Positions 857-62,879 of a stretch of DNA of 64,000 bases are shown here, one piece after another; the first letter of the stretch is position 1; every line of letters starts with the position of its first letter. The notes below the pieces were generated by a model. It worked only from the letters and a program-made list of their open reading frames with translations, did no database searches and was not told where the DNA came from. The stretch is from Malacoraja senta (Eukaryota), in assembly GCA_038087875.1 (NCBI GenBank), contig CM075995.1, positions 10,418,001 to 10,482,000 on the forward strand, given 5' to 3'. The position numbers were made by a program, and so were the translations under genes.

Positions 857-1136
857 AAAACTTGGCATTGGGAGCAAGTCCGACCCAGTCCAGCACGGAT
901 GAAGGGGCAGTTGCTGAGCGAGCTAAGGACGGGAACAGCGACAGCGACTTCAGGCATGGTTCATGCGCGCGCACCAGGAAATCCAAGAACCCTTGGTGGA
1001 GAGTCGATCTAAGGGAAAGCTACAACGTTTCAGATGTAAGAATCACCAACAGAGCAGACTGCTGCTCGGATCAGCTCCAAGGAGCCGAGATCCGCATCGG
1101 GGACTCGCTGGAAAATGATGGCAATTTCAACAGACT
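857..1136 (+). CDS. F-type lectin domain 1, exon A
   Basis: ccccacag|AAAACTTGG...AACAGACT|gtaagt; 280 bp, no stop. Confidence 0.92.
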
Positions 1137-4100
1137 GTAAGTATTCATAAGCAATCGCCGATTCTATTCACCTGCGGTGTCTTCTTCTACAAATTCCACT
1201 GTTACTGGAGCAATGATAACGCGAGAGGGTTAAAAAGAGAGATGCTGCAGGTTACAAATGGTTTCACTGCAGATACAATTAAAATTGTGCTCATATGCTC
1301 CAGATGCTGAAGACACTGATACAGGGCAGTAGTCCACCTATCCAATTGCACGAGCAGCTACCCTATCACTTTAGCGATAGAGATTAATAAAAGGAGGTGA
1401 ATAAATATGTAATTGAAGTAAATTCAAATAATGTAATATTGAACATTAGGATTGCAGTGGCAATGTTCAATTAACCAATGCCTATGAATGAGAGATCATG
1501 CAGTCTATATCCAGTCAATGCTACCTACGTGTCAGAAGGAATTGCAGATACTGTTTTAAACAGAAGATATACACCTAAATATGGAGTAACCCCGCGGGTC
1601 AGACACCATTGCTGGACAAAAGGAATAGGTGACGTTTCGGTTCGAGATCATCCTGCAGATTGTATTCAGTCTGAAGAAGGATCTTGACTTGAAACGTCAC
1701 ATATTCCTATGCCCCGTAAATGTTGTCGGAGCCTCAGGGCTCCGCTGATAGACATCTGTTCGGAACACGAGCAAGTGGATACGATGCCGGAGGTAACGGA
1801 AGCCCCACATATCCCCGGGACCTGTCACCAGTTCACCCGCACAGGACTGCGATAAGTTCTCGCACGCTTCCTGATGCGCACGATCAACAGAGTGGAGTCT
1901 AACATTTATATCCTCATAATTTCAGCTGCGGAATCGTTGATTCAGATTCTGGGACGTCATTCACCTTCTATTGTGGAGGATCTGTCGGTCGATATGTGAA
2001 CATCATCATCCCAGGCACGGATAAGATTTTGACCCTGTGCGAGGTTGAGATATTTGGTTCAGAACTCCCGTATTTACATGGAAAAGGTAGGCTGAAGTTC
2101 CCGTTCAGGCTCTGGTGGTTCACTGCCCCACAGCTTAGTTGAGCGATTCCCCTGCTGATGAAGTCGTAATAAATCTAACTTACTCAAACCCCGTACGGTC
2201 TCTGCCAACGATCCGCTATTTGACATTGTTTGTTACATCACCAGTCTTGGATCTTCGCCTTGACCGAACATGAACCTGTCTGTAAATGAAACCCCAGTGA
2301 TTCTGGATGCACACCCCGTCCTCCATTTCATCCGGAGAACTTATGTTGATAAACACTAGCCAGGCACCAACAAAATACACACTTATTGTAACACGCTTGA
2401 AGCGTATCTCTCTGTTACCAGACTAATACACGACCCTCCCTTGACTTGTAGTGCAATGGCGATATCTTAACCTGCCTCAGTCCGGTACTTGGGCTTATTT
2501 TCTATCGATCTGTAGATATAATACTTTAACACCATATTATGCAATCTGTTGTTTTAATTCTACTTTACCCGTTGCTCTTGCGTGTGGCTCCAATGCACTG
2601 GTGTACATTATGATTTGATTGTATATTACTAAGTTGAATTTTCGATGCTTCTCGCCTCACTTCACCACACGAAATCAGAACGAATCTCAATCAAATATAC
2701 TGCTGATCCAAACCTTGATAGAAGGCCTACATTCGTCGGAATTAAATAGAAACGTAGAAAATAGGTGCAGGAGTAGGCCATTCCGTTCTTCGAGCTAGCA
2801 CCACTATTCAATGTGATTATGTCTGATCATCCAAAATGAGTACCCCTTTCCTGCTTTCTCCCTAAATCCCTTGAATCCGTTATCCCCGAGAGTTATATTT
2901 AACTCTCTCTTAAATGCATCTTGCCTTTCGCCACAGTGAGACATTTCCATCCCCACAGAAAACTTGGCATTGGGAGCAAGTCCGACCCAGTCCAGCACGG
3001 ATGAAGGGGCAGTTGCTGAGCGAGCTAAGGACGGGAACAGCGACAGCGACTTCAGGCATGGTTCATGCGCGCGCACCAGGAAATCCAAGAACCCTTGGTG
3101 GAGAGTCGATCTAAGGGAAAGCTACAACGTTTCAGATGTAAGAATCACCAACAGAGCAGACTGCTGCTCGGATCAGCTCCAAGGAGCCGAGATCCGCATC
3201 GGGGACTCGCTGGAAAATGATGGCAATTTCAACAGACTGTAAGTATTCATAAGCAATCGCCGATTCTATTCACCTGCGGTGTCTTCTTCTACAAATTCCA
3301 CTGTTACTGGAGCAATGATAACGCGAGAGGGTTAAAAAGAGAGATGCTGCAGGTTACAAATGGTTTCACTGCAGATAAAATTAAAATTGTGCTCATATGC
3401 TCCAGATGCTGAAGACACTGATACAGGGCAGTACTCCACCTATCCAATTGCACGAGCAGCTACCCTATCACTTTAGCGATAGAGATTAATAAAAGGAGGT
3501 GAATAAATATGTAATTGAAGTAAATTCAAATAATGTAATATTGAACATTAGGATTGCAGTGGCAATGTTCAATTAACCAATGCCTATGAATGAGAGATCA
3601 TGCAGTCTATATCCAGTCAATGCTACCTACGTGTCAGAAGGAATTGCAGATACTGTTTTAAACAGAAGATATGCACCTAAATATGGAGTAACCCCGCGGG
3701 TCAGACACCATTGCTGGACAAAAGGAATAGGTGACGTTTCGGTTCGAGATCATCCTGCAGATTGTATTCAGTCTGAAGAAGAATCTTGACTTGAAACGTC
3801 ACATATTCCTATGCCCCGTAAATGTTGTCGGAGCCTCAGGGCTCCGCTGATAGACATCTGTTCGGAACACGAGCAAGTGGATACGATGCCGGAGGTAACG
3901 GAAGCCCCAAATATCCCCGGGACCTGTCACCAGTTCACCCGCACAGGACTGCGATAAGTTCTCGCACGCTTCCTGATGCGCACGATCAACAGAGTGGAGT
4001 CTAACATTTATATCCTCATAATTTCAGCTGCGGAATCGTTGATTCAGATTCTGGGACGTCATTCACCTTCTATTGTGGAGGATCTGTCGGTCGATATGTG

Positions 4101-7100
4101 AACATCATCATCCCAGGCACGGATAAGATTTTGACCCTGTGCGAGGTTGAGATATTTGGTTCAGAACTCCCGTATTTACATGGAAAAGGTAGGCTGAAGT
4201 TCCCGTTCAGGCTCTGGTGGTTCACTGCCCCACAGCTTAGTTGAGCGATTCCCCTGCTGATGAAGTCGTAATAAATCTAACTTACTCAAACCCCGTACGG
4301 TCTCTGCCAACGATCCGCTATTTGACATTGTTTGTTACATCACCAGTCTTGGATCTTCGCCTTGACCGAACATGAACCGGTCTGTAAATGAAACCCCAGT
4401 GATTCTGGGTGCACACCCCGTCCTCCATTTCATCCGGAGAACTTATGTTGATAAACACTAGCCAGGCACCAACAAAATACACACTTATTGTAACACGCTT
4501 GAAGCGTATCTCCCTGTTACCAGACTAATACACGACCCTCCCTTGACTTGTAGTGCAATGGCGATATTTTAACCTGCCTCAGTCCGGTACTTGGGCTTAT
4601 TTTCTATCGATCTGTAGATATAATACTTTAACACCATATTATGCAATCTGTTGTTTTAATTCTACTTTACCCGTTGCTCTTGCGTGTGGCTCCAATGCAC
4701 TGGTGTACATTATAATTTGATTGTGTATTACTAAGTAGAATTTTCGATGCCTCTCGCCTCACTTCACCACACGAAATCAGAACGAATCTCAATCAAATAT
4801 ACTGCTGATCCAAACCTTAATAGAAGGCCTACATTCGTCGGAATTAAATAGAAACGTAGAAAATAGGTGCAGGAGTAGGCCATTCCGTCCTTCGAGCTAG
4901 CACCACTATTCAATGTGATTATGTCTGATCATCCAAAATGAGTACCCCTTTCCTGCTTTCTCCCTAAATCCCTTGAATCCGTTATCCCCGAGAGTTATAT
5001 TAACTCTCTCTTAAATGCATCTTGCCTTTCGCCACAGTGAGACATTTCCATCCCCACAGAAAACTTGGCATTGGGAGCAAGTCCGACCCAGTCCAGCACG
5101 GATGAAGGGGCAGTTGCTGAGCGAGCCAAGGACGGGAACAGCGACAGCGACTTCAGGCATGGTTCATGCGCGCGCACCAGGAAATCCAAGAACCCTTGGT
5201 GGAGAGTCGATCTAAGGGAAAGCTACAACGTTTCAGATGTAAGAATCACCAACAGAGCAGACTGCTGCTCGGATCAGCTCCAAGGAGCCGAGATCCGCAT
5301 CGGGGACTCGCTGGAAAATGATGGCAATTTCAACAGACTGTAAGTATTCATAAGCAATCGCCGATTCTATTCACCTGCGGTGTCTTCTTCTACAAATTCC
5401 ACTGTTACTGGAGCAATGATAACGCGAGAGGGTTAAAAAGAGAGATGCTGCAGGTTACAAATGGTTTCACTGCAGATAAAATTAAAATTGTGCTCATATG
5501 CTCCAGATGCTGAAGACACTGATACAGGGCAGTAGTCCACCTATCCAATTGCACGAGCAGCTACCCTATCACTTTAGCGATAGAGATTAATAAAAGGAGG
5601 TGAATAAATATGTAATTGAAGTAAATTCAAATAATGTAATATTGAACAATAGGATTGCAGTGGCAATGTTCAATTAACCAATGCCTATGAATGAGAGATC
5701 ATGCCGTCTATATCCAGTCAATGGTACATACGTGTCAGAAGGAATTGCAGATACTGTTTTAAACAGAAGATATACACCTAAATATGGAGTAACCCCGCGG
5801 GTCAGACACCATTGCTGGACAAAAGGAATAGGTGACGTTTCGGTTCGAGATCATCCTGCAGATTGTATTCAGTCTGAAGAAGGATCTTGACTTGAAACGT
5901 CACATATTCCTATGCCCCGTAAATGTTGTCGGAGCCTCAAGGCTCCGCTCATAGACATCTGTTCGCAACACGAGCAAGTGGATACGATGCCGGAGGTAAC
6001 GGGAGCCCCACATATCCCCGGGACCTGTCACCAGTTCACCCGCACAGGACTGCGATAAGTTCTCGCACGCTTCCTGATGCGCACGATCAACAGAGTGGAG
6101 TCTAACATTTATATCCTCATAATTTCAGCTGCGGAATCGTTGATACAGTTTCTGGGACGTCATTCACCTTCAATTGTGGAGGATCTGTCGGTCGATATGT
6201 GAACATCATCATCCCAGGCCCGGATAAGGTTTTGAACCTGTGCGAGGTTGAGATATTTGGTTCAGAACTCCCGTATTTACATGGAAAAGGTAGGCTGAAA
6301 TTCCCGTTCAGGCTCTGGTGGTTCACTGCCCCACAGAGTTGAGCGATTCCCCTGCTGATGAAGTCGTAATAAATCTAACTTACTCAAACCTCGTAACGTC
6401 GCTGCCAATGATCTGCTATTTGACATTGTTCGTTCACTCACCAGTCTTGGACCTTCGCCTTGACCGAACATGAGCCTGTCTGTTAATGAAAACCCAGTGA
6501 TTCTGGGTGCACACCCCGTCCTCCATTTCACCCGGAGACCTTATGGTGATAAACACTAGCCAGGCACCAACAAAATACACACCTATTGTAACACACTTGA
6601 AGCGTATCTCTCTGTTACCAGACTAATGCACGACCCTCCCTTGACTTGTAGTGCAATGGCGATATTTTAACCTGCCTCAGTCCGGTACTTGGGCTTATTT
6701 TCTATCGATCTGTAGATATAATACTTTAACACCATATTATGCAATCTGTTGTTTTAATTCTACTTTATCTGTTGCTCTTGCTTGTGGCTCCATTGCACTG
6801 GTTTACGTTGTGATTTGATTGTATATTACTGTAGACTTTTCGATGCGTCTCGCCTCACTTCACCACACGAAATCGGAACGAAACTCAATCAAATATACTT
6901 CTGATCCAAACCTTGATAGAAGGCCTACTTTCGTCGGAATTAAATAGAAACATAGAAAATAGGTGCAGGAGTAGGGCCATTCCGTCCTTCGAGCTAGCAC
7001 CACTATTCAATGTGATTATGTCTGATCATCCAAAATGAGTACCCCTTTCCTGCTTTCTCCCTAAATCTCTTGAATCCGTTATCCCCGAGAGTTATATTTA

Positions 7101-10100
7101 ACTCTCTCTTAAATGCATCTTGCCTTTCGGCACAGTGAGACATTTTCATCCCCACAGAAAACTTGGCATTGGGAGCAAGTCCGACCCAGTCCAGCACGGA
7201 TGAAGGGGCAGTTGCTGAGCGAGCCAATGACGGGAACAGCGACAGCGACTTCAGGCATGGTTCATGCGCGCGCACCAGGAAATCCAAGAACCCTTGGTGG
7301 AGAATCGATCTAAGGGAAAGCTACAACGTATCAGATGTAAGAATTACCAACAGAGCAGACTGCTGCTCGGATCAGCTCCAAGGAGCCGAGATCCGCATCG
7401 GGGACTCGCTGGAAAATGATGGCAATTTCAACAGACTGTAAGTGCTCATAAGCAATCGCCGATTCTATTCACGTGCGGTGTCTTCTTCTACAACTGTTAC
7501 TGGAGCAATGATAAAGTGAGAGGGTAAAAAAAGAGAGATGCTGCAGGTTATAAATGGTTTCACTGCAGATACAATTAAAATTGTGCTCATATGCTCCAGA
7601 TGCGGAAGACAATGATACAGAGCAGTAGCCCACCTATCCAATTGCACGAGCAGCTGCCCTATCACTTTAGCGATAGACATTAATAAAAGGAGGTGAATAA
7701 ATCTGTAATTGAAGTAAATTCAAATAATGTAATATTGAACAATAGGCTTGCAGTGGCAATGTTCACGTAACCAATGCCTATGAATGAGAGATCATGCAGT
7801 CTATATCCAGTCAAAGCTACCTACGTGTCAGAAGGAATTGCAGATACTGTTTTAAACAGAAGATATACACCAAAATATGGAGTAACTCCGCGGGTCAGAC
7901 ACCATTGCTGGACAAAAGGAATAGGTGACGTTTCGGTTCGAGATCATCCTGCAGATTGTATTCAGTCTGAAGAAGGATCTTGACTTGAAACGTCACATAT
8001 TCCTATGCCCCGGAGATGTTGTCGGAGCTTCAAGGCACCGCTCATAGCCATCTGTTCGGAACACGAGCAAGTGGATACGATGCCGGAGGTAACGGGGAGC
8101 CCCGCATATCCCCGGGACCTGTCACCAGTTCACCCGCACAGGATTGCGATAAGTTCTCGCACGTTTCCTGATGCGCATGATCAACAGAGTGGAGTCTAAC
8201 ATTTATATCCTCATAACTTCAGCTGCGGATTCGTTGATACAGTTTCTGGGACGTCATTCACCTTCAATTGTGGAGGATCTGTCGGTCGATATGTGAACAT
8301 CATCATCCCAGGCCCGGATAAGATTTTGACCCTTTGCGAGGTTGAGATATTTGGATCAGAACTCCCGTATTTACATGGAAAAGGTAGGCTGAAGTTCCCG
8401 TTCAGGCTCTGGTGATTTACTGCCCCACAGCTTAGTTGAGCGATTCCCCTGCTGATGAAGTCGTAATAAATCTAACTTACTCAAACCCCGTACGGTCTCT
8501 GCCAACGATCTGTTATTTGACATTGTTCGTTCATTCACCAGTCTTGGACCTTCGCCTTGACCGAACATGAACCTGTCTGTTAATAAAAACCCAGTGATTC
8601 TGGGTGCACACCCCGTCCTCAATTTCATCCGGAGACCTTATGGTGATAAACGCTAGCCAGGCACCAACAAAATACACACCTATTGTTACACGCTTGAAGC
8701 GTATCTCTCTGTTACCAGACTAATGCACGATCCTCCCTTGACTTGTAGTGCAATGGCGATATTTTAACCTGCCTCAGTCCGGTACTTGGGCTTATTTTCT
8801 ATCGATCTGTAGATATAATACTTTAACACCATATTATGCAATCTGTTGTTTTAATTCTACTTTACCTGTTGCTCTTGCGTGTGGCTCCAATGCACTGGTT
8901 TACGTTATGATTTGATTGTATATTACTAAGTAGAATTTTCGATGCCTCTCGCCTCACTTCACCACACGAAATCAGAACGAATCTCAATCAAATATACTGC
9001 TGATCCAAACCTTGATAGAAGGCCTACATTCGTCGGTATTAAATAGAAACGAATAAAATAGGTGCAGGAGTAGGCCATTCCGTCCTTCGAGCTAGCACCA
9101 CTATTCAATGTGATTATGTCTGATCATCCAAAATGAGTACCCCTTTCCTGGTTTCTCCCTAAATCTCTTGAATCCGTTATCCCCGAGAGTTATATTTAAC
9201 TCTCTCTTAAATGCATCTTGCCTTTCGGCACAGTGAGACATTTCCATCCCCACAGAAAACTTGGCATTGGGAGCAAGTCCGACCCAGTCCAGCACGGATG
9301 AAGGGGCAGTTGCTGAGCGAGCCAATGACGGGAACAGCGACAGCGACTTCAGGCATGGTTCATGCGCGCGCACCAGGAAATCCAAGAACCCTTGGTGGAG
9401 AGTCGATCTAAGGCAAAGCTACAACGTATCAGATGTAAGAATCACCAACAGAGCAGACTGCTGCTCGGCCCAGCTCCAAGGAGCCGAGATCCGCATCGGG
9501 GACTCGCTGGAAAATGATGGCAATTTCAACAAACTGTAAGTATTCATGAGCAATCGCCGATTCTATTCACCTGCCGTGTCTTCTTCTGCAAATTCCACTG
9601 TTACAGGAGCAATGTTAAAACGAGTGAGTAAAAAAAGAGAGAAGCTGCAGGTTACGAATGGTTTCACTGCAGATACAATTATAATTGTGCTCCTTTGCTC
9701 CAGATGCGGAAGACAATGATATTCCACTTATCCAATGTCACGTGCTGCCGCATCGCTTTAGCGATAGAGGTTAATAAAAGGCGATGCATAAATCTGTAAT
9801 TGAAGTAAATTCAATTATGTAATATTGAACAATCGGATTATAATGGCAATTTTCAAGTAACCAATGCCTATGAGTGAGAGATCATGCAGTCTCTGTCATG
9901 TCAATGCTACCTACGTGTCGTACGAAACTGCAGATCCTGGTTTAAACAGAAGATATGCACCTGGAGTAATTTCGCGGGTCCGACAAGATTGCTGGAGAAA
10001 AGAAATAGGTGACGTTTCGGGTGGAGACCATCATGCAGATTGTATTCAGTCTGAAGAAGGGTGTTGACCCGAAACGTCACATATTCCTTTGCTCCGGAGA

Positions 10101-13100
10101 TGTCGGCAGAGCCACAAGGCTGTATCCGTATCGTCTTCCGCTCATAGCCATCTGTTCGCAACACGAGCTAGTGGATGCGATGCCGGCGAACTGAATCTGG
10201 ATCTGGATTTCGTTCCCTGAAATGCTCAAGGTGGAGCATCACTCAGCACTCGACAATTTTACACTGACAATTTTTACATTTTTATCAAGCCAATTATTCC
10301 AGCCAACTAACTTACAACCCTGTACGTCTATGGAGTGTGGGAGGAAACCGAAGATCAGAGAAAACCAACGCAGATCACGGGGAGAACGTGCAAACTCCAT
10401 ATAGACAGCACCCGTAGTCGGGATCGAAACCGGGAATCTGGCGCTGCATTTTCCTGTCAGGCAGCAAGTCTACCGCTGCGCCACCGTGACGGCCCGTGGG
10501 AGCCCCACATAACCCCGGGACCTGTCACCAGTGCACCCGCAGACGCCTGTGATACATTCTCGCACGCTTCCTGATCCCCATGATCGACAGATTGGCGTCT
10601 CACCTTTAAATGCTCATTATTTCAGCTGTGGAATCGTTGATTCTGTTTCCGGGACGACATTCACCTTCAATTGTGGGGGATCTGTCGGTCGATATGTGAA
10701 CATCATCAACACTGGCCCGGATAAAATTTTGACCCTGTGCGAAGTTGAGATATTTGGTTCAGAACTCCCGTACTTACATGGAAAAGGTATGCTGAATTTC
10801 CCGCTGAGGCTCTGGTGGTTCACTGCCCCTAAGCTTAGATGAGCGATTCTCCTGCTGAATAAGTCGTAGTATATCTAACTTACTGAAACCCCGTACCGTC
10901 CCTGCTAACGATCTGCTATTTGCCATTGTTAGTTTACTCGCCAGTCTTGGACCTTCGCCTTGAACGGACATGAGCCTGTCTGTTATTGAAACCCCTGTGA
11001 CACTCGGTGCACACCCATCCTCCATTTCGTCCGGAGACCTTATGCTGATAAACACTAGCCAGGCAACAACAAAATACACACCTATTGAAACACGCTTGAA
11101 GCGTATCAACCCGCTACCACACAGATGCACGATCCTCGCTTGACTTGTTGAGCAATCGTGATATTTTAATCTGCCTCAGCGCGGTACTTGGACTTATTTT
11201 CTATAGGTCTGTAGATATAATACCATAACACTATATTATGCAATCTGTTATTGTAATTCTATTTTACCCGTTGCTCGTACGTGTGGCTCCATTGCACTGG
11301 TGTACAGTATGATTTGATTGTATATTACCAAGAAGAATTGTCGATGCATCTCGCTTCACCACACCAAAGTAGTACGGATATCAATGAAATACTGATCCAA
11401 ACATTGACAGCAGGACTACATTCGTCAGTATTAAATAGAAACGTAGAAGATAGGTGCAGGAGTAGGTCATTCCGCCCTTCGATCTAGCACCGCCATTGAA
11501 TATGATTATGGCTGATCATCCAAAATGTGTACCTCGTTGCTGCTTTCTCCCCATATCCCTTGAATCCGTTATCCGTGAGAGCTATATCTAACTCTCTCTT
11601 AAATACATCTAGCCTTTCGGCTCAGTGAAACGTTTCCATCCCCACAGCAAACTTGGCGTTGGGAGCAAGTCCGTCCCAGTCCAGCACGGATGAAGGGGCG
11701 GCTGCAGAGCGAGCCAATGACGGGAACAGCGACAGCGACTTCATGCGTGGTTCATGCGCGCGCACCAGGAAATCCAAGAACCCTTGGTGGAGAGTCGATC
11801 TAAAGGAAAGCTACAACGTTTCAGATGTAAGAATCACCAACAGAGCAGATTGCTGCTCGGACCAGCTCCAAGGAGCCGAGATCCGCATCGGGGACTCGCT
11901 GGAGAACGATGGCAATTTCAACAGACTGTAAGTATTCATAAGCAATCGCCGAATCTATTCTCCTCCGGTGACTTCTACAAATTCCACTGTTACTGAAGCA
12001 ATGTTAACGTGAGTGGGAAAAAACCATAGAGATGCTTCAGGTTACAAATGATTTAACTGCAGGTAAAATTATAATTGTGCACCTCTGCTCCAGACAATGA
12101 TACAGATCAGTAGTCCACCTATCCAATGGCACGAGCTGCTGCCGTGTCGCATTAGCGATAGAGGTTAATAAAAGGAGGTGCATAAATCTGTAATTGAAGT
12201 AAATTCAAATTATGTAATATTGAACAATCGGATTGCAGTGGCAATGTTGAAGTAACGAATGCCTTTAAGTGAGAGATCATGCAGTCTCTATCCAGTCAAT
12301 GCTACCTACTTGTCGGAAGAAATTGCAGACACTGTTTTAAACAGAAGATATACACAAACATCTGGAGTAACTTCGCGGGTCAGACACCATTGCTGGAGAA
12401 AAGAAATGGAGTGGCGTTTCAGTTCGAGACGTCACATATTTCTACGCCCCGGAGATGGTTTCGGAGCCGCAAGGTGGTCCGACCAGTCAGAGGCCATGCT
12501 GCAAGATGCATTGAGCGACGTCGACTGGAATATGTTCCATGCAAGTTCCAGTGACGCCAGTGAGTTCGCGGAAGCGGTCATGGACTTCATTGCAACAATA
12601 GCCGATGACTTCGTCCCCACGGTAAGGGTTAGCATCTTTCCCAATCAAAAACCCTGGGTGGACAGGTCCATTCGTGTGCCTTGAATGCTCGCACCGCTGC
12701 TTACAACTCTGGCCGAGCATCCGGAAATGTAGTCGTCTACAAGGAAGAGTCCTACCGACTGCGAAGGGAGGTGCAGGACGCAACAAGGAGGTACAGGTAC
12801 AAGATGGAGCCAGAGATGGAGCAGCCGGACACCAGACCCCTTTGGCAGGGGCTACGGACTATAACTAACTGCCGTAGCAGCCCCCCCCCCAACCGTGAGT
12901 GCCGGCAATAGACAATAGACAATAGACAATTGTTGCAGGAGTATGGCATTTGGCCCTTCGAGCCAGCAGCGCCATTCAATATGGTCATGGCTGATTATCT
13001 CCAATCAGTACCCCGTTCCTGCCTTCACCCCATATCCCATGACTCCACTATTTTTAAGTGCCCTATCTAGGTCTTTCTTGAAAGCATCCAAGGAATCTGC

Positions 13101-14703: not shown

Positions 14704-14739
<36 letters not shown>

Positions 14740-50700: not shown

Positions 50701-53700
50701 TACTCCAGCGAATATAGGGTACGGAAAAGTCAACAGATCTCCATATGGTATACCAATCATCCCTGGGATCAGTCTGGTAATCCTCCCCTGGACCCTCTAC
50801 AATGCCAGTACATCCCTCCTCAGATATGGGGACCAAAACAGTTCACAATATCCCAACCGCGCTCTGCCCAGTGCCTTATAAAGCCTCAGCATTTGACCCC
50901 TGCTTTTATATTCTAGCTCTCTGGATATAAATCCTAACAATGAATTTGCATTCCTTAATACTGGTTCAACTTGCAAATTAACCCTTTGGGAATCCAGCAC
51001 CAGCACTCCCAAATCCATTTGCACCTCTGATTTCTGAATCTCTCCCACATTGAAAAACACTCTGCCCTTTTATTTATTTTTCCAAATTGCATGATCACTC
51101 AATTTGTTATGATGTCTTCCATCTGCGACTTATCTGCCTCTCTCCCAACCCGTCCAGGTCATTCTACAGACTCGCTGCTTCCTCTGCATGACCTGGCCCT
51201 CTAGTTATCTTTGTATTATCCGCAACATTAAGTTTGGGTAAAACTTAATATCCAAACAAAGGCATTAATTCCATCATTCAAATCATTGATATACCACGTG
51301 CAAAGTGACGGACCCAACACAAAACCCTGTGAACACCGCCACTCACTGGCAACCAACCAGAAAAAAAACATTATTCCCACTCTTTGCCTTCAATACAGCC
51401 AACGTGCTATCCATGCTGGTATCTTCCCTCTAATTCAAAGGGATCTCTCCGTTACCCGACGACAGAACGGTCCTCCCTTGAGTTGTAGTGCAATCTCGAT
51501 ATTTTAACCTGCCTCAGCGCGGTTCTCAGACTAATGTTCTCTAGCCCTATTGCTATGATACTATAACACCACATTATACAATTTATTGTTTTATTTCTAC
51601 TTTACCTGTTGCTCTTGTGTGCGCCTTCATTGCACTGATGCACATTACGAATTGATTGTATTGTACAAAGAAGTGTTTACACTGCATCTCGTTTCACTTG
51701 ACCACACTAAAGCAGAACGAATATCAATGAAACACACTGATGACCCAAACCCTGAAGGCAGGACAACATCCATTGGTATTAAATCTCCCCCTTTCGGCTC
51801 ATGTGAGGTGTTTCCCACCCAACAGAAAACGTGGCGTTGGGAAGAAGTTCGACCCAGTCCAGCATGGATCCACGGGCGGGTGCTGAGCGAGCCAATGACG
51901 GGAACAGCGACAGCGACTTCAGGCATGGTTCATGCGCGCGCACCATTAAATCGAAGAACCCTTGGTGGAGAGTCGATCTAAAGGAAAGCTACAACGTGTC
52001 TGATGTAAGAATCACCAACAGAGCAGACTGCTGTTCGGAGCAGCTCCAAGGAGCAGAGATCCGCATCGGGGACTCGCTGGAGAACAATGGCAATATCAAC
52101 AGACTGTAAGTATACATAAGCGATCGCCGAATCTATTCACCTGTGGTGGCTTATTCTGCAAATGCCACTGTTACTGGAGCAATGATCACATGAGTGGGTG
52201 AAAGAGAGAGATGCTGCGGGGTACGTATGATTTCATTGCAGATAAAATTAAATTTTTGCTCCACCGCTCAAGATGCGTAACAGAACGTTACAGAGCCGTT
52301 GTCCTCTTATCCAAATGCATGAGTTGCTGCATTATCGCTTTTGCGATGGGGTCAATAAAAGGAGGTCAATAAATCTGTAATTGAATTCAAGTACTATAAT
52401 ATTTAAAAATCGAATTACAGTGGCAATGTTCAAGTCACCAATGCCTATGAGTGAGAGATCATCGAGTCTCTATCCAGTCAATGATCCCTATGTATCGGAA
52501 GGAATTGGAGATACTGGTTTAAACCGAAGAAACCGAACACAACAATCTGGAGTTAAAGCTCTGTCCCACGGGTTTGCGGTCGTTGGCGGTGAAGCGCGGC
52601 GTCGCCGGAAGAGGGGATCGCACGGCAACCACGAGAGCGCCGCGATTTCGGTTGATGACGTCTTTCGAATCGAGGGGCTGTGGCGGCGGCCGGGCCGCAC
52701 ACGTACCTCATTGGCGGAGGCTGTGGCGGTGCAGGTTCGACTCACGGCGCTCGTGCCTCACTGGCGGCGGCTGTGGCGGCGGCCGTGCCGCACTCGTGCC
52801 TCACTGGCGGCGGCTGTGCGGCAGGAACATATTTTTGGACAGTGTTGTTTTTTTTTAGCACCGTGAGGTGTTGGGAACAACGCCGCACGGCCCCGGAATT
52901 GTACGTTTGACCGAGCCCGCGGTCTATGGCGGCCCAGGAGGGGTAGATAGTTCCTGTTTCGCCGCCAATGACCGCAGACTCGTGAGACAGGCCTTTAAAC
53001 TCAACGGGTCAGACACCAATGCTGGAGAAAATAAATAGGTGACGTTTCGTGTCAAGACCTTCCTTCTGATTGAACTGAGTCTGAAAAATGGTCTCGATAC
53101 GAAACGTCACATACTATTTTTCGCCAAAGATGTTGTCAGAGCCGCAAGGCAACCTATGTATCCGGATCTGCTTCTGCTCCGAGCCATTTGTTCGGAACAC
53201 GAGCAAGTGGATACGATGCCGGAGGTTACGTGGGAGCCCCACATTTCCCCGGGACCTGCCACCAGTTCGCTCTCACAGGCCTGGAATAAACTTTAGCACG
53301 CTGCCTTGCCGCATTATTGTGAGATTGACGTCTCACCTTTAAATCCTCATAATTTCAGCTGTGGAATCTTTGATTCAGTTTCGGGGTCTTCAATTGTGGA
53401 GGATCTGTCGGTCGATATGTGAACGTCATCATCACAGGCCCGGATAAAATTTTGACCCGGTGCGAGGTTGAGAATTCCACAAGTTCACAACTCTCTGGGT
53501 GAAAAAGTGTTTCCTCATCTCTAAATGGCCTAATTCTTATACTGTAGCCCCTGGTTCTGGACTCCCCCAACATCGAGAACATGTTTCCTGCATCTAACGT
53601 GACCAATCCCTTAAAAATGTAATATGTTTCGATGAGATAACCTCTCATCCTTCTAAATTTCAGTGAGTACAAGCCCAGTCGCTCCATTCTTTCAGCATAT

Positions 53701-56700: not shown

Positions 56701-59700
56701 ATTTTACGCATGATGGAGACAGTGGAATCTCACGTTTAAATCCTCATCTTTTTCAGCTGTGGAATCGTTGATTCCGTTTCTGGGACGACGTTGACCTTCA
56801 ATTGCGGTGGAATTGTTGGTCAATATGTGAACATCGTCATCCCAGGCCCGGATAGAATTTTAACCCTGTGCGAGGTTGAGATATTTGGTACAGAACTCCC
56901 GCACTTACATGGAAAAGGTAGGCTGAACTTCCCACTGGTGCTCCGGTGGTTCACTGCCCCATAGCTTAGTTGAGCAATTCTCCTGCTGATGAAGTCTGTC
57001 TATAACTACCTAACTGAAACCCCGTACCGTCTCTGGCAACGATCTGCTAAATCCCATTGTTGGTTTACTCGCCAGTCGTGGACCATCGCCTGTCCGAACC
57101 TGAGCCTGTCCTTTAATGAAAAATCAGAGAGTCGGTGCACACGCGGTCATCCATTTCGTCCGGAGACTTTAGGCTGACACCAACAAAGTCAGACACCAAC
57201 AAAATCACGCCTATTGAAACACGCTTGAAGCGCATCTCTCCGTTAACAGATTACTGCACGGTCCTCCCTAGAGTTGTAGTGCAATCACGATATTTTAACG
57301 TGCCTCAGCGCAGTTCTTGGATTTATTTTCTATAGGTTTCTAGATATAATACTATAACACAATGTGGTGCAATCTGTTGTTTCAATTCTACTTCACCATT
57401 ACTGCTTTCTCCCCATATCCCTTCAATCCGTCATCCCTGAGATTTATATGTAACTCTCTCTTAAATACATCTTGCCTTTCGGCTCAGTAGGACGTTTTCA
57501 TCCCCACAGAAAACTTGGCGTTGGGAGCAAGTCCGACCCAGTCCAGCACGGATGAAAGGGCAGCTGCTGAACGAGCCATTGACGGGAACAGCGATAGCGA
57601 CTTCAGGCATGGTTCATGCGCGCGCACCAGGAAATCCAAGAACCCTTGGTGGAGAGTCGATCTAAAAGATACCTACCTCATATCAGATGTGAGAATCACC
57701 AACAGAGCAGACTGCTGCTCGGACCAGCTCGAAGGAGCCGAGATTCGCATCGGGGACTCGCTGACGCACGATGGCAATTTCAACAGACTGTAAGTATTCA
57801 TAAGCATTCGCCGAATCTATTCACCTGCGGTGTCTTCTACGAATTCCACTGCTACTGGAGCAATAATAACATGAGTGGGTAAAAAAGAGAGATGCTGCAG
57901 GTGGCGAATGGTTTCGCTGCGGGTTAAATAAAAAAATGTCCTCCTCTGCTTCGGATGCGTGAGACAATGATACAGAGCCGTAGTCCACTAATCCAATGGC
58001 ACGAGGTGCTGCATTATCGCTTTAGCGACGCGGGTTCATAAAAGGAGGTGCATAAATCTGTAATTGAAGTTAATTCAAGTTATGTAATTCTGAACCATCA
58101 GATTGCAGTGTCAATGTTCAATTAACCAATGCCAATGAGTGTGGTTCATGTAGGCTCGATCCACTCAGCGCTATCTGTGTGTCCGAACGAACTGCAGATG
58201 CAGGTTTAAACCGAAGATATACACATAAACTGGAGAAACTAAGCGGGTTGGACAGGAACTATGGAGAAAAGGAATAGCTGACGTTTCGGGTCGAGACCGT
58301 CCTTCAGTGTGAAGAAGGGTCTCATCCCGAAACGTCACCTATCCCTTTTTCTCCAGAAATGTTGCCTGACCCGCAAGGCCTCCTGTGTATCCGGAACCTT
58401 TCCTGTTCCTAGCCAACGGTTCGGAACACGAGCATATGGATACGATTCCTGCTATTGCCGCGAGAGCCCCACATATCCGCAGAACGTGTCATCAGTACAC
58501 CAGCACAGGCCTATGATAACATTTGACATGCTTCTTCATATGCGCGATCGAGACAGTGGAGTCTCTCCTTAAATCCCTCTTATTTTGTAGCTGTGGAACC
58601 GTTGATCCAGTTTCTTGGACGACATTGACCTTCTATTGCGGTGGCATCGTCGGTCGATATGTGAACATCATCATCCCAGGCCCGGATAAAACTTTAACCC
58701 TGTGCGAGGTCGAGATATTTGGTTCAGAAGTCCCGTACTTACATGGAAAAGGTAGTGTGAACTTCCCGAAGAGGCGCTGGTTTAACACAGCCGCACAACT
58801 TAGTGGAGCGATTCTCCCGCTGATAAAGTTTGAGGATAACTTCCTTATTGAAGCCCAGTACCGTCTCTCCAAACGCTCTGTTCTTTGCTATTCGTAGTTT
58901 TGTCGCCGGTATTGGACCCGCGTTGTGTCCGAACATGAGCCACAGTGCGTGTTCATGAAATCCCTGAGACACGCAGTGCACACGCTGTCATCCATTTCGT
59001 CCGGGGAACTTATGCTTATAAACACCAGCCACGCACCAACAAAATACACACCTAATGAAGAGTATCACCCTCCTATTAGAGTCCAAACTTTAGTTGTACA
59101 ATCCCAATATTTTAACGCCTCAGTGGGGTGCTTGGTCATATTTTCTGTAATCGTAAATCCATAACACTGCAACAACATACCATGAAATCTATTGATTTGT
59201 CTACTTTACCTGTTGCTCTAGTGTGCGGATTCATTGCACTGATGTACAGTATGACTAGATTTGATAGTAGAGACGACAGAGTTCACTACATCTCACTTCA
59301 CTTCGCCATATAAAGCAATGCAAATATCAATGAAATACACTGCTAATACAAACCTTGATAGGCCAACATCCATCGTTAATAAACCTCCCCCTTTCGCGTC
59401 AGTGAAGCTTTTCAACCCAACAGAAAACGTGGCGTTGGGAGCAAGGCCGAGCCAATCCAGCACGGATGAACAGGCAGTTTGTGAGCGAGCCAATGACGGT
59501 AATAGCGACAACGACTTCAGGCATGGTTCATGTGCGCGTACCAGTAAATCCAAGAACCCTTGGTGGAGAGTTGATCTAACGGAAAGCTACAACGTGTCAG
59601 ACGTAAGGATCACCAACAGAGCAGACTGCTGCTCCGACCAGCTCCAAGGAGCCGAGATCCGCATCGGGGACTCGCTGGAGAATTATGGCAATTCCAACAG

Positions 59701-62700
59701 ACTGTAAGTATTCAGAAGCAATCACCGACTGCGGTGTCTTCTTGTGCAAATTCCATTGTTACAGGCGCAATGATAAAATGAATGTGGAAAACAGATGCTG
59801 CGGGTTAAGAATGGTCTCACTGCAGTTGAAATAAAAATTGTGCTGCGCTGATCCAGATGCGAAAAATAAAAGCAAAACTATTTTCCAGTTAACATAGAAA
59901 CATAAAAATAGGTGCAGGAGTAGGCCATTCGACCCTTCGAGCCTGCACCGCCATTCGATATGATCATGGCCGATCATCCAACTCAGTATCCCATCCCTGC
60001 CTTCTCTCCATACCCCCTGATCCCTTTAGCCACAAGGGCCACATCTAACTCCCTCTTAAATATAGCCAATGAACTGGCCTCAACTACCTTCTGTGGCAGA
60101 GGATTCCACAGATTCACCACTCTCTGTGTAAAAAAATGATTTTCTCATCTCGGTCCTAAAAGACTTCCCTCTTATCCTTAAACTGTGACCTTTAGTTCTG
60201 GACTTCCCCAACATCGGGAATAATCTTCCTGCATCTAGCCTGTCCAACCCCTTAAGAATTTTGTAAGTTTGTATAAGATCCCCCCTCAATCTTCCAAATT
60301 CCAGCGTGTACAAGCCGAGTCTTAATTAGTGGCTGCTGCCGTACCACTATCGCGATTGGTTCATTAAAAAGGAGGTGCTTAAATCAGAAATTGATGTTAA
60401 TTGCAGTCATGTAATACTGAATAATCTGATTGCACTGGCAATGTTCACGTAACCAATGACTATGAGTGAGAATAATTGCAGGCTCGAACTATTCAGGGCT
60501 ACCTATGTGAATGAACGACCTGCAGATGCAGGTTTAAACCGAAGATAGACACAATAAGCTCAAGCAACTCAGCAGGTCGGACATCAAAAATCGAGAAAAT
60601 GAATAGCAGACGTTTCGGGATGAGACCCTCCTCCAGTGTATTCAGTCTAAAGAAGGATTCTCGACCCAATACGCCACCTATTCCTTTTCTCCAGAGATGG
60701 TGTCTGACCCGCAAGGTCTTCTATGTACCCGGAACCACTCCTGTTGCTCGCCATCTGTTCGGAACACGAGCAAGTTTATACGAAGTCGGCAATTGCCGTG
60801 GGAGCACCACACATTCGCGGAACGCGTCATCAGTACACCAGCAGCGCCCTGCGATAGCCTTCCTCATTCGCATGATCGAGACAGTGGGGTCTCACCTTTA
60901 AAATCATCATCTTTTTCAGCTGTGGAATCGTTGATGCGGATTTCGGGCCGAAATTGATCTTCAATTGCGGTGGATTTATCGGTCGATATGTGAACATCAT
61001 CATCCCAGGCCCGGATAAAATCTTAACCCTGTGCGAGGTTGAGATATTTGGTTCAGAACTCCCGTACTTACATGGAAAAGGTAGGATGAACTTCCCGCTG
61101 AGGCTCTAGTTGTACACAGCCCCACAACTTAACTAAGCGATTCTCCCGCTGATAAAGTCTGAGTATAAGTTCCCGATTGAAGCCCAGAACAGTCACTCCC
61201 AACGCTCTGGTCTTTGCCATTCGTAGTTTACTCGCCAGTCTTGGACTCTCGCTGTGTCCGAACACGAGCCTGTCTGTTCATAAAATCCCTGAGACGGTGG
61301 GTACATTCGCCGTCAACCATTTCGTCGCAGACATTATGCAGACAAACACCAGCCACGCTCCAAAAAATACACTTCTATCGAAGCACGCTTATAGAGTATC
61401 TTCCCGTTACCCGACTACATAACGGTCCACCCTTGAGTTGTAGTGCAATCCCGATTTTTATCCTACCTCATCGCGGTTCGCAGACTAATGTTGCCCAGCC
61501 CTATTGCTATAATACTATGACACCATGTTATGCAATCTATTGTTTTCTTTCTACTTTACCTGTTGCTCTTGTGTGCGGCTTAATTGTACTGATGTGCAGT
61601 ATGATTTGTTTGTATAGCACAAAGAAGTGTTTGCGTTGCATCGCACTTCACTTGACCACACTAAATGAGAACGAATATCAATGCAATACACTGTTGACCC
61701 TAACCCTGATAGCAGGCCGACATCCATTGGTATTAAATACCCCCGTTTCAGTCCAGTGGGATGTTTCTCGCCCAACAGAAAACGCGGCGTTGGGATATTT
61801 GTTTAGGAACTCCCGTCCTTACATGGAAAACTTAGACTGAAGTATCCGCTGAGGCTCTGGTTGTTCACAGACCCACAGCTTAATTGAGAGAATCTCCCGT
61901 TGATAATGTTTGAGGATAATAACCTTACTGAAGCCAAGTACCCAACGCTCTGCGTTTTACCATTCTTAGTTTAATCGCCAGTCTTGGACCATCCATTTGT
62001 CCAAGCATGAACCTGTCTACAAATGCATTGCCTGAGAGATACGGTGCACATGTGGACATCCATTCAGCCCGGAGACCTCATGCTGATAGGCACCCACCAC
62101 GCACCAACGAAATGCACACCTAATGAAACTCGATTGAAGAGTATCACTCTGCTATCATACTATTGAACTGTGCTATCTTTGAACTGTACTATTGAACTGT
62201 GCTACCAATTGGTGTATGTGACAATACATGTCCTTTGTCCTTTGACCTTTTGTCCTTTTGTCCTATGTTGAGTAGTAGCGCAAACTCAATCTTTTAACGC
62301 GTCAGTGCGGTGTATAAACGTAAATCCATAACATTGTAACAACATACCATGAAATCTATTGATTCTTCAACTTTACCTGGTGCTCTTGTCTGCGGCTTCA
62401 TGGCACTGATGTACAGTATGATTTGATTCGATAGTAGAGACGATGGAATTCACTACATATCGCTTCACTTGATCATCGTATTCAATACGAATATCAATGA
62501 GATACCCTGCTATTCCAAACCGGGTTATTACCGAAGGACTACATCCGTCGGTAATAAATCTCACCCTTTCGGCTCAGTGAGGTGTTTCCTACCCTACAGA
62601 AAACGTGGCGTTGAAATCAAGGCCGACCCAGTCCAGCACGTATCCAGGGGCAGGTGCTGAGAACGCCAACGACGGTAACAGCGACAGCGACTTCAGGCAT

Positions 62701-62879
62701 GGTTCATGTGCGCGCACAAATAAATCCAAGAACCCTTGGTGGAGAGTCGATCTAAAGGAAAGGTACAACATGTCAGATGTAAGAATCACCAACAGAGCAG
62801 ACTGCTGCTCGGACCACCTCGAAGGTGCCGAGATCCGCATCGGGGATTCGCTGGAGAACGATGGCAATTTCAACAGACT
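857..62879 (+). CDS. Multi-exon gene (open at both window ends) encoding at least 15.5 tandem F-type lectin (fucolectin/FTP) domains with occasional Pro/Thr-rich linkers
   Basis: Repeated exon pairs translate to [63 protein letters not shown], the FTP-domain signature. Intron phases (A: 1 to 2, B: 2 to 1) chain all exons in one frame, 7603 nt in total. Confidence 0.88.
1926..2086 (+). CDS. F-type lectin domain 1, exon B
   Basis: tttcag|CTGCGGAATC...CATGGAAAAG|gtaggc; [25 protein letters not shown]; 161 bp. Confidence 0.92.
2959..3238 (+). CDS. F-type lectin domain 2, exon A
   Basis: Same AG/GT sites and translation as exon A1. Confidence 0.92.
4028..4188 (+). CDS. F-type lectin domain 2, exon B
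   Basis: tttcag|CTGC...AAAG|gtaggc, 161 bp. Confidence 0.92.
5060..5339 (+). CDS. F-type lectin domain 3, exon A
   Basis: AG/GT sites intact, 280 bp. Confidence 0.92.
6129..6289 (+). CDS. F-type lectin domain 3, exon B
   Basis: AG/GT sites intact, 161 bp, open frame. Confidence 0.92.
7158..7437 (+). CDS. F-type lectin domain 4, exon A
   Basis: AG/GT sites intact, 280 bp. Confidence 0.92.
8223..8383 (+). CDS. F-type lectin domain 4, exon B
   Basis: cttcag|CTGC...AAAG|gtaggc. Confidence 0.92.
9256..9535 (+). CDS. F-type lectin domain 5, exon A
   Basis: AG/GT sites intact, 280 bp. Confidence 0.92.
10192..10495 (-). mobile_element. tRNA-derived V-SINE (HE1-like)
   Basis: Minus strand has A-box TGGCGCAGCGG, B-box-like GTTTCGATCC and V-core GGAGTTTGCACGTTCTCCCCGTG...GGTTTCCTCCCACA; absent from sister units. 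Confidence 0.75.
10626..10786 (+). CDS. F-type lectin domain 5, exon B
   Basis: tttcag|CTGT...AAAG|gtatgc. Confidence 0.9.
11648..11927 (+). CDS. F-type lectin domain 6, exon A
   Basis: cccacag|CAAACTTGG...AGACT|gtaagt; DFMRGSC variant. Confidence 0.9.
12908..17455 (-). mobile_element. CR1-clade LINE with ORF1 SGNH-esterase remnant and ORF2 APE/RT, degenerate
   Basis: [21 protein letters not shown] (16975-17346), [41 protein letters not shown]; (CAATAGA)n tail at 12908. Confidence 0.92.
13965..15053 (+). mobile_element. Young CR1 3' portion (+) followed by an inverted copy of its own 3' end, nested in the minus-strand CR1
   Basis: Open 224-aa ORF2 C-terminus 14031-14705; (ATATGGTT)n tail; mirror arm 14822-15053. 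Confidence 0.85.
18833..19047 (-). mobile_element. CR1 3'-end fragment inserted in the Rex1-like LINE
   Basis: (AGAAACAT)n tail; host frame ELYI|RRCRSR resumes afterwards. Confidence 0.8.
19690..19850 (+). CDS. F-type lectin domain 6, exon B (after a 7.8-kb TE-expanded intron)
   Basis: tttcag|CTGT...AAAG|gtaggc, open frame. Confidence 0.88.
20314..20645 (+). mobile_element. CR1 3' fragment
   Basis: [30 protein letters not shown]. Confidence 0.85.
21100..21376 (+). CDS. F-type lectin domain 7, exon A (one-codon deletion)
   Basis: 277 bp, QST instead of QSST, frame preserved, AG/GT intact. Confidence 0.9.
21586..21888 (-). mobile_element. LINE 3' remnant with (TGAA)n microsatellite tail
   Basis: (TGAA)7 then TTTATT (AATAAA on the minus strand); absent from sister introns; family not determined. 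Confidence 0.5.
22138..22337 (+). mobile_element. Probable solo LTR
   Basis: TG...CA, flanked by a GACCC direct repeat, internal TATAAA and AATAAA, absent from sister introns. Confidence 0.55.
22630..23125 (+). mobile_element. CR1 RT fragment with internal deletions
   Basis: [29 protein letters not shown]. Confidence 0.85.
23301..23692 (+). CDS. F-type lectin domain 7, exon B plus Pro/Thr-rich linker
   Basis: tttcag|CTGT...GGAACAG|gtaggc; 392 bp, phase 2 to 1. Confidence 0.85.
24166..24593 (+). other. Extra exon-B/linker copy (B-prime) with CR1-derived 5' end and candidate in-frame acceptor
   Basis: tattctag|C TCT CTG GAT ATA AAT GCT AAC ATT GAA TTT GCC TTC AAT TGC...ACAG|gtaggc; open frame; splicing unproven. 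Confidence 0.6.
24700..25625 (-). mobile_element. Old degenerate CR1 fragment (copies at ~32560-33475 and ~50540-51445; shorter pieces in each 932-bp unit)
   Basis: [39 protein letters not shown] on the minus strand. Confidence 0.8.
25996..26275 (+). CDS. F-type lectin domain 8, exon A
   Basis: ccaacag|AAAACGTGG...AGACT|gtaagt. Confidence 0.9.
26727..27214. mobile_element. GC-rich non-autonomous DNA transposon (MITE), TTAA-flanked
   Basis: Imperfect TIR agctctgtcccacgggtttgcggtc / gaccgcagactcgtgagacaggcct (20/25), TTAA on both sides, internal ~43-bp repeats. Confidence 0.75.
27393..27808 (+). CDS. F-type lectin domain 8, exon B plus Pro/Thr-rich linker
   Basis: 416 bp, 24 bp longer than B7, AG/GT intact. 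Confidence 0.85.
28282..32437 (+). repeat. Five tandem 932-bp units, each carrying a B-prime exon (28282-28709, 29214-29641, 30146-30573, 31078-31505, 32010-32437)
   Basis: ORF starts at 28346/29278/30210/31142/32074 are exactly 932 bp apart; all copies are stop-free and keep the ag and gtaggc sites. Confidence 0.92.
33854..34133 (+). CDS. F-type lectin domain 9, exon A
   Basis: AG/GT intact, 280 bp. Confidence 0.9.
34585..35077. mobile_element. Same MITE, duplicated copy
   Basis: Same TIRs (extending to ~35 bp) and TTAA flanks. Confidence 0.75.
35441..35554 (+). pseudogene. Dead exon B (10-bp frameshifting deletion, 3' end truncated by CR1)
   Basis: GGGAC^TTCAAT lacks GTCATTCACC and the shifted frame reaches TGA; antisense CR1 follows GAGGTTGAG. 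Confidence 0.85.
35555..38362 (-). mobile_element. Degenerate CR1 LINE (ORF2 APE to 3' end)
   Basis: [38 protein letters not shown]. Confidence 0.9.
38820..38980 (+). CDS. F-type lectin domain 9, intact exon B
   Basis: ttttcag|CTGT...AAAG|gtaggc; GQYVNI variant. Confidence 0.85.
39574..39853 (+). CDS. F-type lectin domain 10, exon A
   Basis: AG/GT intact; AIDGN and DTYLISD variants. Confidence 0.9.
40307..40438. repeat. Palindromic (Penelope-LTR-like) element; a copy lies in A-B introns throughout the array
   Basis: gcggg..ggagaaaaggaatag.tgacgtttcggg..ttcag mirrored by tgaagaaggg..cccgaaacgtcac..ttttctcca..cccgc. Confidence 0.7.
40655..40815 (+). CDS. F-type lectin domain 10, exon B
   Basis: ttttgtag|CTGT...AAAG|gtaggc. 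Confidence 0.9.
41488..41767 (+). CDS. F-type lectin domain 11, exon A
   Basis: ccaacag|AAAACGTGG...AGACT|gtaagt; extra Cys (QAVCER). Confidence 0.9.
41956..42386 (-). mobile_element. CR1 3' fragment (copy at 59891-60321)
   Basis: [39 protein letters not shown] tail. Confidence 0.88.
42985..43145 (+). CDS. F-type lectin domain 11, exon B
   Basis: ttttcag|CTGT...AAAG|gtagga; [16 protein letters not shown]. Confidence 0.9.
43844..43895 (+). pseudogene. Collapsed unit: start of exon A fused to end of exon B, donor destroyed
   Basis: ccaacag|AAAACGCGGCGTTGGGA joined to TATTTG...CTTACATGGAAAActtagactgaag. Confidence 0.8.
44665..44944 (+). CDS. F-type lectin domain 12, exon A
   Basis: cctacag|AAAACGTGG...AGACT|gtaagt; DCCSDH variant. 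Confidence 0.9.
45300..46135 (+). mobile_element. CR1 ORF2 RT fragment, preceded by a MITE-like end (45198-45300)
   Basis: [36 protein letters not shown]; upstream ctgtcccac terminus with cgcga repeats. Confidence 0.88.
46289..48894 (+). mobile_element. 5'-truncated L1-clade LINE with poly(A) and TSD
   Basis: [40 protein letters not shown]...C zinc knuckle; AATAAA plus A-tail; AGAAAAGGAAT at 46278 and 48895. Confidence 0.92.
49173..49558 (+). CDS. F-type lectin domain 12, exon B plus Pro/Thr-rich linker
   Basis: ttttttag|CTGT...GAAACAG|gtaggc; 386 bp, phase 2 to 1. Confidence 0.85.
49988..50415 (+). other. Extra B-prime exon copy with CR1-derived 5' end
   Basis: Same structure as 24166-24593. 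Confidence 0.6.
51826..52105 (+). CDS. F-type lectin domain 13, exon A
   Basis: Paralog of A9, AG/GT intact. Confidence 0.9.
52557..52994. mobile_element. Same MITE, with internal deletion
   Basis: Same TIRs and TTAA flanks. Confidence 0.75.
53359..53472 (+). pseudogene. Dead exon B (duplicate of 35441-35554)
   Basis: Same deletion and same CR1 truncation. Confidence 0.85.
53473..56295 (-). mobile_element. Degenerate CR1 LINE (duplicate of 35555-38362)
   Basis: Matching ORF fragments 54296-54700 and 55743-56256. Confidence 0.9.
56757..56917 (+). CDS. F-type lectin domain 13, intact exon B
   Basis: AG/GT intact, 161 bp. Confidence 0.85.
57510..57789 (+). CDS. F-type lectin domain 14, exon A
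   Basis: Paralog of A10. Confidence 0.9.
58591..58751 (+). CDS. F-type lectin domain 14, exon B
   Basis: tgtag|CTGT...AAAG|gtagtg (altered donor context). Confidence 0.85.
59424..59703 (+). CDS. F-type lectin domain 15, exon A
   Basis: Paralog of A11. Confidence 0.9.
60920..61080 (+). CDS. F-type lectin domain 15, exon B
   Basis: Paralog of B11, AG/GT intact. Confidence 0.9.
61779..61830 (+). pseudogene. Collapsed A/B unit (duplicate of 43844-43895)
   Basis: Same fusion junction. Confidence 0.8.
62600..62879 (+). CDS. F-type lectin domain 16, exon A (partner exon B beyond the window)
   Basis: Paralog of A12, AG/GT intact. Confidence 0.9.

Follow-up and report, generated by a model that had tools for sequence, protein, structure and literature searches.

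An array of about 55 tandem F-type lectin-like domains with a remodelled fucose site, predicted to form one very large gene in the skate Malacoraja senta

Introduction

The fucose motif of F-type lectins is H...RXDX4(R/K), the site of the eel lectin AAA being His52-Arg79-Arg86, and characterised vertebrate members carry one to five tandem domains (PMC5712786; PMC12221842). Here we analyse a 64,000-nucleotide (nt) stretch of the Malacoraja senta genome (the window; G000:C19:10418001-10482000), which an earlier reading, made from the letters alone (the sequence-only reading), took to lie inside a giant gene of chained F-type domains. The range of one to five domains that it quoted holds for characterised proteins (PMC5712786), but models in databases reach 11-14 domains.

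AAA (1k12) and striped bass FBP32 (3cqo), of one and two domains respectively, have in common with the domains described here the F-type fold, Cys82-Cys83, Arg79-x-Asp, Asp-Gly and the equivalents of Phe45 and Ser49, but they keep His52 and Arg86, which in Malacoraja are mostly Arg and Gln. Oyster bindin likewise has tandem F-type repeats with an intron within each domain, and some of its repeats have no triad, but it has one to five repeats, positively selected and alternatively spliced (PMC5712786), whereas the Malacoraja array has about 55, purified and homogenised. Some database models place tandem F-type domains behind a signal-like N-terminus, namely Xenopus tropicalis LOC100491211 (11-14 domains by isoform), an uncharacterized protein of the sawshark Pristiophorus japonicus (10-11 domains, signal-like start) and LOC102347739 of the coelacanth Latimeria (1,597 amino acids (aa), signal-like start). 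These models are a quarter of the size of the array and have no long Pro/Thr/Ser spacers in the sequences read; the sawshark and coelacanth domains retain His-Arg-Arg (10/11 and 9/10 parsed), unlike those of the array. Since the sawshark has an 11-domain model with a signal-like start, the architecture is present in another cartilaginous fish. The tandem F-type architecture is thus already known from models of 11-14 domains, and it is the scale and the remodelled site that are new. An FTP-domain fragment has been detected in catshark skin mucus (PMC10707392).

Structure and extent of the array

With the first A and the first B exon as probes, and with every splice site inspected, we found 16 A exons that alternate strictly with 15 intact B exons across positions 857-62879, an A exon being a 280-nt AG...GT exon that runs from phase 1 to 2 and a B exon one that runs from phase 2 to 1. 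All A exons in the window are 280 nt long except one of 277 nt, and the intact B exons comprise 12 of 161 nt and three long ones (392, 416 and 386 nt). Spliced in silico, these 31 exons give 7,603 nt, or 2,533 codons, with no stop, which reproduces to the base the frame of the sequence-only reading. That reading also had the array run on past both ends of the window, as it does: base 1 lies just within a B-A intron, the preceding B exon ending 16 nt upstream of the window, and the next B exon past the far end is at 64491. The window further contains seven orphan exons of 428 nt that resemble B (B'), together with two B exons that are broken and two fragments of B, none of them mentioned in the sequence-only reading.

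We examined 664 kb around the window, extending its numbering into the flanks. In full, the array extends from -167942 to 101441 (G000:C19:10250058-10519441), over 269 kb, and has 55 A and 56 B exons. It opens with a B exon that lies 1.5 kb past an assembly gap at -169660..-169461, and no F-type exon was found in the 130 kb upstream of that gap. Only the last B exon (101267-101441) lacks a donor; it closes with TGA, and some 150 nt downstream is an AATAAA. An AG acceptor is present in all 111 exons, and 110 of them have a GT donor or are the terminal exon, B7 being scored by a weak alternative GT. The donors of two adjacent exons, B7 (-144293) and A8 (-139155), are damaged, and omitting both joins A7 to B8 in frame. 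The remaining 109 exons, spliced in silico, amount to 26,224 nt and encode 8,740 aa (~950 kDa) with a single stop at the end, that is, 54 whole domains and an orphan first half-domain. Intact exons still alternate despite the lesions, both at B7 and A8 and from A43 to the next B. Nine B exons across the array have Pro/Thr/Ser-rich spacers of 82-98 aa (34-44% Pro/Thr/Ser). The single large gene of the sequence-only reading, put there at more than 2,500 aa and at least 16 domains, is therefore supported but was underestimated in size (about 55 domains, 8,740 aa); of the outer exons to be looked for in the flanks, the terminal one is at 101267, while a signal exon was not found and the 5' end falls in the gap.

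Domain fold and fucose site

Exon A scores above the cut-off for Pfam F5_F8_type_C, as the F-type assignment had anticipated, and also for F5_F8_type_C_2, and among PDB sequences it matches striped bass FBP32 and eel AAA. A fold model of the Amblyraja orthologue P0005, which stands in for a Malacoraja spliced domain, has a predicted local distance difference test score of 86 and best matches to FBP32 (3cqo) and AAA (1k12), with a root-mean-square deviation of 2.0 Å to AAA; its predicted template-modelling score of 0.47 leaves domain packing undefined. The model thus indicates an F-type beta-barrel fold for the domains.

Site residues were assigned by aligning exon A to AAA and FBP32, 51 of the 55 A exons being full-length. 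The full His-Arg-Arg/Lys triad occurs in none of the 55. The His52 position is Arg in all 16 window domains and in 43/51 full-length A exons, and the Arg86 position is Gln in 14/16 and 39/51, respectively; Arg79-x-Asp is kept in 51/51. So are the Asp-Gly and the Ser49 equivalent (51/51), with Asn as the second small hydrophobic of h2DGx in 42/51, and the contiguous Cys82-Cys83 equivalent (51/51). Each of the 45 distinct domains has six or seven cysteines, 41 of these domains have four or five basic residues in the loop round the site, and 40 have an N-glycosylation sequon at one column. Among 38 parsed domains of three other skates the full triad was again absent, against its presence in 10/11 domains of the sawshark protein. 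Judged by alignment, then, the fucose site is remodelled, mostly to Arg-Arg-Gln beside a basic loop, with the fold core, the six cysteines and Asp-Gly kept. Because the fucose motif is missing, these are not canonical F-type lectin domains by that motif, and they probably do not bind fucose. The "highly multivalent lectin-like" protein of the sequence-only reading accordingly calls for qualification, as none of the 55 domains retains the fucose triad; that reading had overlooked both this change and the Pro/Thr/Ser-rich spacers.

Preferred reading and the points against it

The array is a real, selected, very large F-type-domain gene. On balance, we favour the reading that the window is the middle of one gene of about 55 tandem F-type domains, whose secreted chain of up to about 8,800 residues is a predicted cross-linker of glycans other than fucose. 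That one gene makes very long products seems to us rather probable; granted this, the cross-linker role is an even call. Splicing and expression of the array are read here from DNA alone, two public sequencing runs being treated as DNA because they cover introns; a search of such runs listed no RNA run with the array. The signal exon would be hidden in the assembly gap, splicing would be constitutive with the orphan pieces skipped, and the array would have grown by unequal crossing-over. O-glycosylated spacers may make the chain a long flexible string of domains, on which many weak, near-identical sites would provide avidity for anionic (sulfated or sialylated) glycans, giving a secreted beads-on-a-string cross-linker in mucus or jelly. 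It is likely that the predicted protein works like a multivalent lectin scaffold.

Several observations weigh against this reading, the B' pieces most of all. These pieces have pyrimidine-rich acceptors (13-14/20), like true B exons, and strong donors, and a B' spliced after a B leads to a stop four codons on, which would cut the frame near domain 41; the long frame therefore holds only if splicing passes over the B' pieces as well as two broken B exons and two A fragments. B7 and A8, damaged here, are intact in the Amblyraja and Leucoraja models, and three 3' A exons have degenerate N-terminal parts without the cation motif. The two youngest sets of copies have ratios of nonsynonymous to synonymous change (dN/dS) of 1.14 and 0.82 (few changes, not significant), and the lowest divergence bin is at 0.93. 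The skate RefSeq models that we retrieved split the locus into pieces of 197-1,478 aa, and domain 53 groups weakly, on long branches, with the first domain of a Narcine protein. The gene's beginning lies outside the assembly, so that secretion is argued by analogy with the paralogues. Whole domains are net acidic (mean -3.5), only the local loop being basic.

Splicing of a phase-symmetric module

Since the A-B domain unit is in phase 1 at both of its ends, gain or loss of entire units leaves the reading frame intact, and the array is a clean case of a phase-symmetric two-exon module that expands and contracts with the frame kept. The same symmetry would suit a splicing repertoire, in which one gene joins subsets of phase-compatible units, with B or B' as alternatives, into many shorter proteins, as has been described for oyster bindin (PMC5712786; PMC12221842): any A joins any later B in frame, an A-B'-A splice leaves the frame open, and the sawshark and Xenopus relatives come with several isoforms. 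The splice sites of the array are, however, uniformly strong (GTAAGT in 50/55 A donors), and its domains are homogenised and purified, unlike those of a diversity generator. We regard a splicing repertoire as unlikely, though it is the alternative that survives best.

Selection and copy history

The module has been copied at periods of 2.1, 5.3 and 18 kb. The 18-kb period is that of a recent segmental duplication (31835-46288 v 49813-64223), 98.3-98.5% identical, in which four domains were copied. Pairwise counts among 47 domains gave a dN/dS of 0.39-0.43 in four of five divergence bins, and it was below 1 in three of the five sets of recent copies (0.20, 0.41 and 0.46; P < 0.02), which are 2-7% diverged at silent sites. 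Under neutrality, some 75 stop-creating changes would be expected on the tree of the 45 distinct domains (4.33 third-position changes per site × 414 sites × 4.2%), whereas none was seen. The 18-kb duplication has no indels in 1,323 exon sites v 10 in 10,234 intron sites, although the events are few. Together these counts point to purifying selection on the domains at a dN/dS of about 0.4.

A once-functional giant gene now decaying in this lineage, its open frame a recent inheritance, would explain the two damaged donors near the 5' end, the orphan and broken exons, the degenerate 3' domains and a dN/dS near 1 in the youngest copies. It sits poorly with 109 exons that have no internal stop or frameshift, with lesions that are frame-neutral when skipped, and with copy sets 2-7% diverged at silent sites that still have a dN/dS of 0.2-0.46. 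We therefore think decay distinctly improbable, although, like a splicing repertoire, it is a real rival.

One gene or several

The closest proteins to exon A, at 77-90% identity, are from the skates Rhinoraja, Amblyraja and Leucoraja. RefSeq fragments of Amblyraja radiata, Leucoraja erinacea and Rhinoraja longicauda (e.g. LOC116984049, LOC116984036, LOC116984017, LOC116983989 and LOC144607515) have the same domain order and the same remodelled site, but they are annotated as several separate uncharacterised genes. In a quick tree of 95 domains, which took 27 of the 55 Malacoraja domains, numbers 2-13, 44, 46 and 51 pair in order with domains of Amblyraja, Leucoraja or Rhinoraja (Shimodaira-Hasegawa-like approximate likelihood-ratio support 88-100). 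The skate models start and stop within domains or introns, apparently without signal peptides, and from their sequences they read as pieces of one gene. When the first B exon and one of the 3' A exons served as queries in protein searches (up to 2,000 aa), no skate model that spans either end was returned.

Paralogous F-type genes of the same genome have a 65-nt signal-peptide exon, and we modelled a scan on their exon build, allowing split signal exons with no ATG required. The scan recovers the four known paralogous signal exons and a fifth before a separate F-type gene downstream, but none in the 271-kb array and none in the 130 kb before the gap. The introns show no conserved peak that would mark a hidden exon, their 40-nt bins being mostly 0.70-0.80 identical (0.68-0.89) v mostly 0.85-0.93 (0.79-0.93) in exons. 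Nor is there a conserved intronic poly(A) signal: A[AT]TAAA lies within 150 nt of only 8/55 B donors. With a single terminal exon and no internal starts, the array most likely has one end and a start lost in the assembly gap, as far as its sequence indicates. Directly before the gap lies a G-rich minisatellite block (L003, -171500 to -170100), which likely caused the assembly break.

Several candidates for further starts or ends were rejected. A B-A intron stretch (e.g. 2464-2496) that resembles the paralogues' signal peptide by weak tblastn is interrupted by frameshifting indels, has neither a conserved ATG nor a conserved donor, and is no more identical among copies than intron is. The candidate signal exon at -202589 lies in GC-rich simple sequence near FAM83-like exons, without acceptor-type form. 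A switch at intronic poly(A) signals fails because AATAAA after B donors is limited to a few copies. A separate gene beginning at domain 53 was likewise rejected, since no signal exon precedes that domain and the B exon ahead of it retains its donor. A genome-wide search for the missing 5' end on another scaffold (77/77 candidates scored) led to C4015, C4537, C4391, C854 and two more C19 sites, all apparently separate small F-type genes or relics.

Several independent small fucolectin genes in a cluster would match the Amblyraja, Leucoraja and Rhinoraja models as annotated, as separate loci of 197-1,478 aa, and read-through from a B donor does soon meet a stop. Yet the array has no signal exon by a scan that finds five elsewhere and only one terminal exon, and the skate models themselves begin or end within domains or introns, apparently with no signal peptides; a cluster of this kind is very improbable.

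Reality of the copies

At the DNA level, 45 of the 47 scored domains are distinct, and some adjacent units are 99.2-99.9% identical. In run X1, single-copy contigs are at depth 25-37, and one of them has the A8 lesion. The 18-kb duplicated block is at depth 41-59, where 27/28 differences match copy 2, and the run contains both versions of it; a further contig, at a word common to 12 of the assembled copies, reaches depth 372. X1 may be the assembly's own sample, and depth by contig is only approximate, but it agrees with the number of copies assembled. Spurious expansion of a few domains by the assembly, the outcome that would have undone the sequence-only reading, is scarcely credible given this depth, the copy-specific letters, the distinct domains and the orthologous domain order in other skates, although one or two of the near-identical neighbouring copies could be wrong.

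Scale and implications

Among 378 proteins retrieved, the most F-type domains in one protein was 14; a Nucella model has 37 half-domain repeats. Three of the searches behind this set covered proteins of up to 2,000 aa and the fourth gave the 150 best of its cluster representatives, so that an annotated model of greater size may exist. In literature listings and the openings of abstracts we found no description of such a gene; subscription papers or supplements could report larger arrays. If expressed as read, the protein would be about four times the largest of the retrieved tandem F-type proteins and ten times the characterised ones, and would show how a lectin fold became an enormous repetitive polymer outside the cell, its binding site altered throughout the lineage. 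If the reading is true, several fragmented skate gene models merge into one gene, elasmobranch mucus or jelly gains a candidate component, and a natural Arg-Arg-Gln variant becomes available for the study of change in F-type specificity.

Gel-forming mucins are defined by von Willebrand D domains and long PTS (Pro/Thr/Ser) regions; the assembled part of the chain consists only of F-type domains and nine spacers, and falls outside that definition. More tentatively, and in our view short of an even chance, skates would secrete a polymer of nearly a megadalton, in which about 55 F-type domains, interrupted by mucin-like spacers, have together switched from fucose to an anionic ligand: a structural gel or coat protein made of lectin-fold units and hidden as fragmented, uncharacterised genes in several public skate genomes.

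Exons and other elements of the window

All exons of the window are on the forward strand. The first A exon, of domain 35 (857..1136), covers the N-terminal two thirds of an F-type domain and was placed by probe match, Pfam and PDB; the 161-nt B exon that follows (1926..2086) was placed by probe match and splice sites. Next come domain 36 (A exon 2959..3238, B exon 4028..4188), domain 37 (5060..5339, 6129..6289), domain 38 (7158..7437, 8223..8383), domain 39 (9256..9535, 10626..10786) and domain 40 (11648..11927, 19690..19850). The A exon of domain 41 (21100..21376) is the one of 277 nt, one codon shorter, and is followed by a long B exon with an 84-aa Pro/Thr/Ser-rich spacer (23301..23692). 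Behind it lies an orphan B' (24166..24593; 428 nt, phase 2 to 1), whose 5' end is replaced and first Cys absent, and which is in frame only when it replaces a B exon. Domain 42 (25996..26275) has a long B exon with a 92-aa spacer (27393..27808), and five tandem B' pieces follow at a 932-bp period (28282, 29214, 30146, 31078 and 32010; 28282..32437).

After the A exon of domain 43 (33854..34133) comes a broken B exon (35441..35555), in which a 10-nt deletion is present and the 3' end and donor are gone, and then an intact one (38820..38980). Domains 44 (39574..39853, B exon 40655..40815) and 45 (41488..41767, 42985..43145) precede domain 46 (44665..44944), which has a long B exon with an 82-aa spacer (49173..49558) and another orphan B' piece behind it (49988..50415). 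Domain 47 (51826..52105) is followed by a copy of the broken exon at 35441 (53359..53473) and by an intact B exon (56757..56917). The window closes with domain 48 (57510..57789, 58591..58751), domain 49 (59424..59703, 60920..61080) and the A exon of domain 50 (62600..62879).

The acceptor of the B' pieces seems to be drawn from reversed sequence of what we take to be a long interspersed nuclear element (LINE), and that acceptor word is also present at three further places in ordinary intron sequence; exonisation of a retroelement is a possible origin. Long open reading frames in introns (14007-18182, 36793-37284, 45601-48470 and 54731-55222) resemble LINE pieces as well.

Neighbouring and paralogous loci

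The separate F-type gene lies about 175 kb downstream on the same strand (G000:C19 ~10692972-10760000; 274972-341990 in extended numbering; L062-L068). It has its own 65-nt signal exon, six domains and its own stop, and it matches Rhinoraja LOC144607535; an intron or insertion interrupts one of its A exons, and the gene contains an assembly gap. Small F-type genes and relics, some with stops, are present on G000 contigs C4015, C4537, C4391 and C854 and at C19:9507149-9598779, and His-Arg-Arg is retained in some of the domains that they encode. Part of C4015 recurs in C4537 at 99-99.7% identity, and C4537 may represent a second haplotype. Two FAM83-type (SACK1 domain) exons, one on each strand (L001:603-1091, forward; L001:8495-8779, reverse), flank another assembly gap 22-30 kb upstream of that of the array, and the scaffolding there may be inverted or duplicated.

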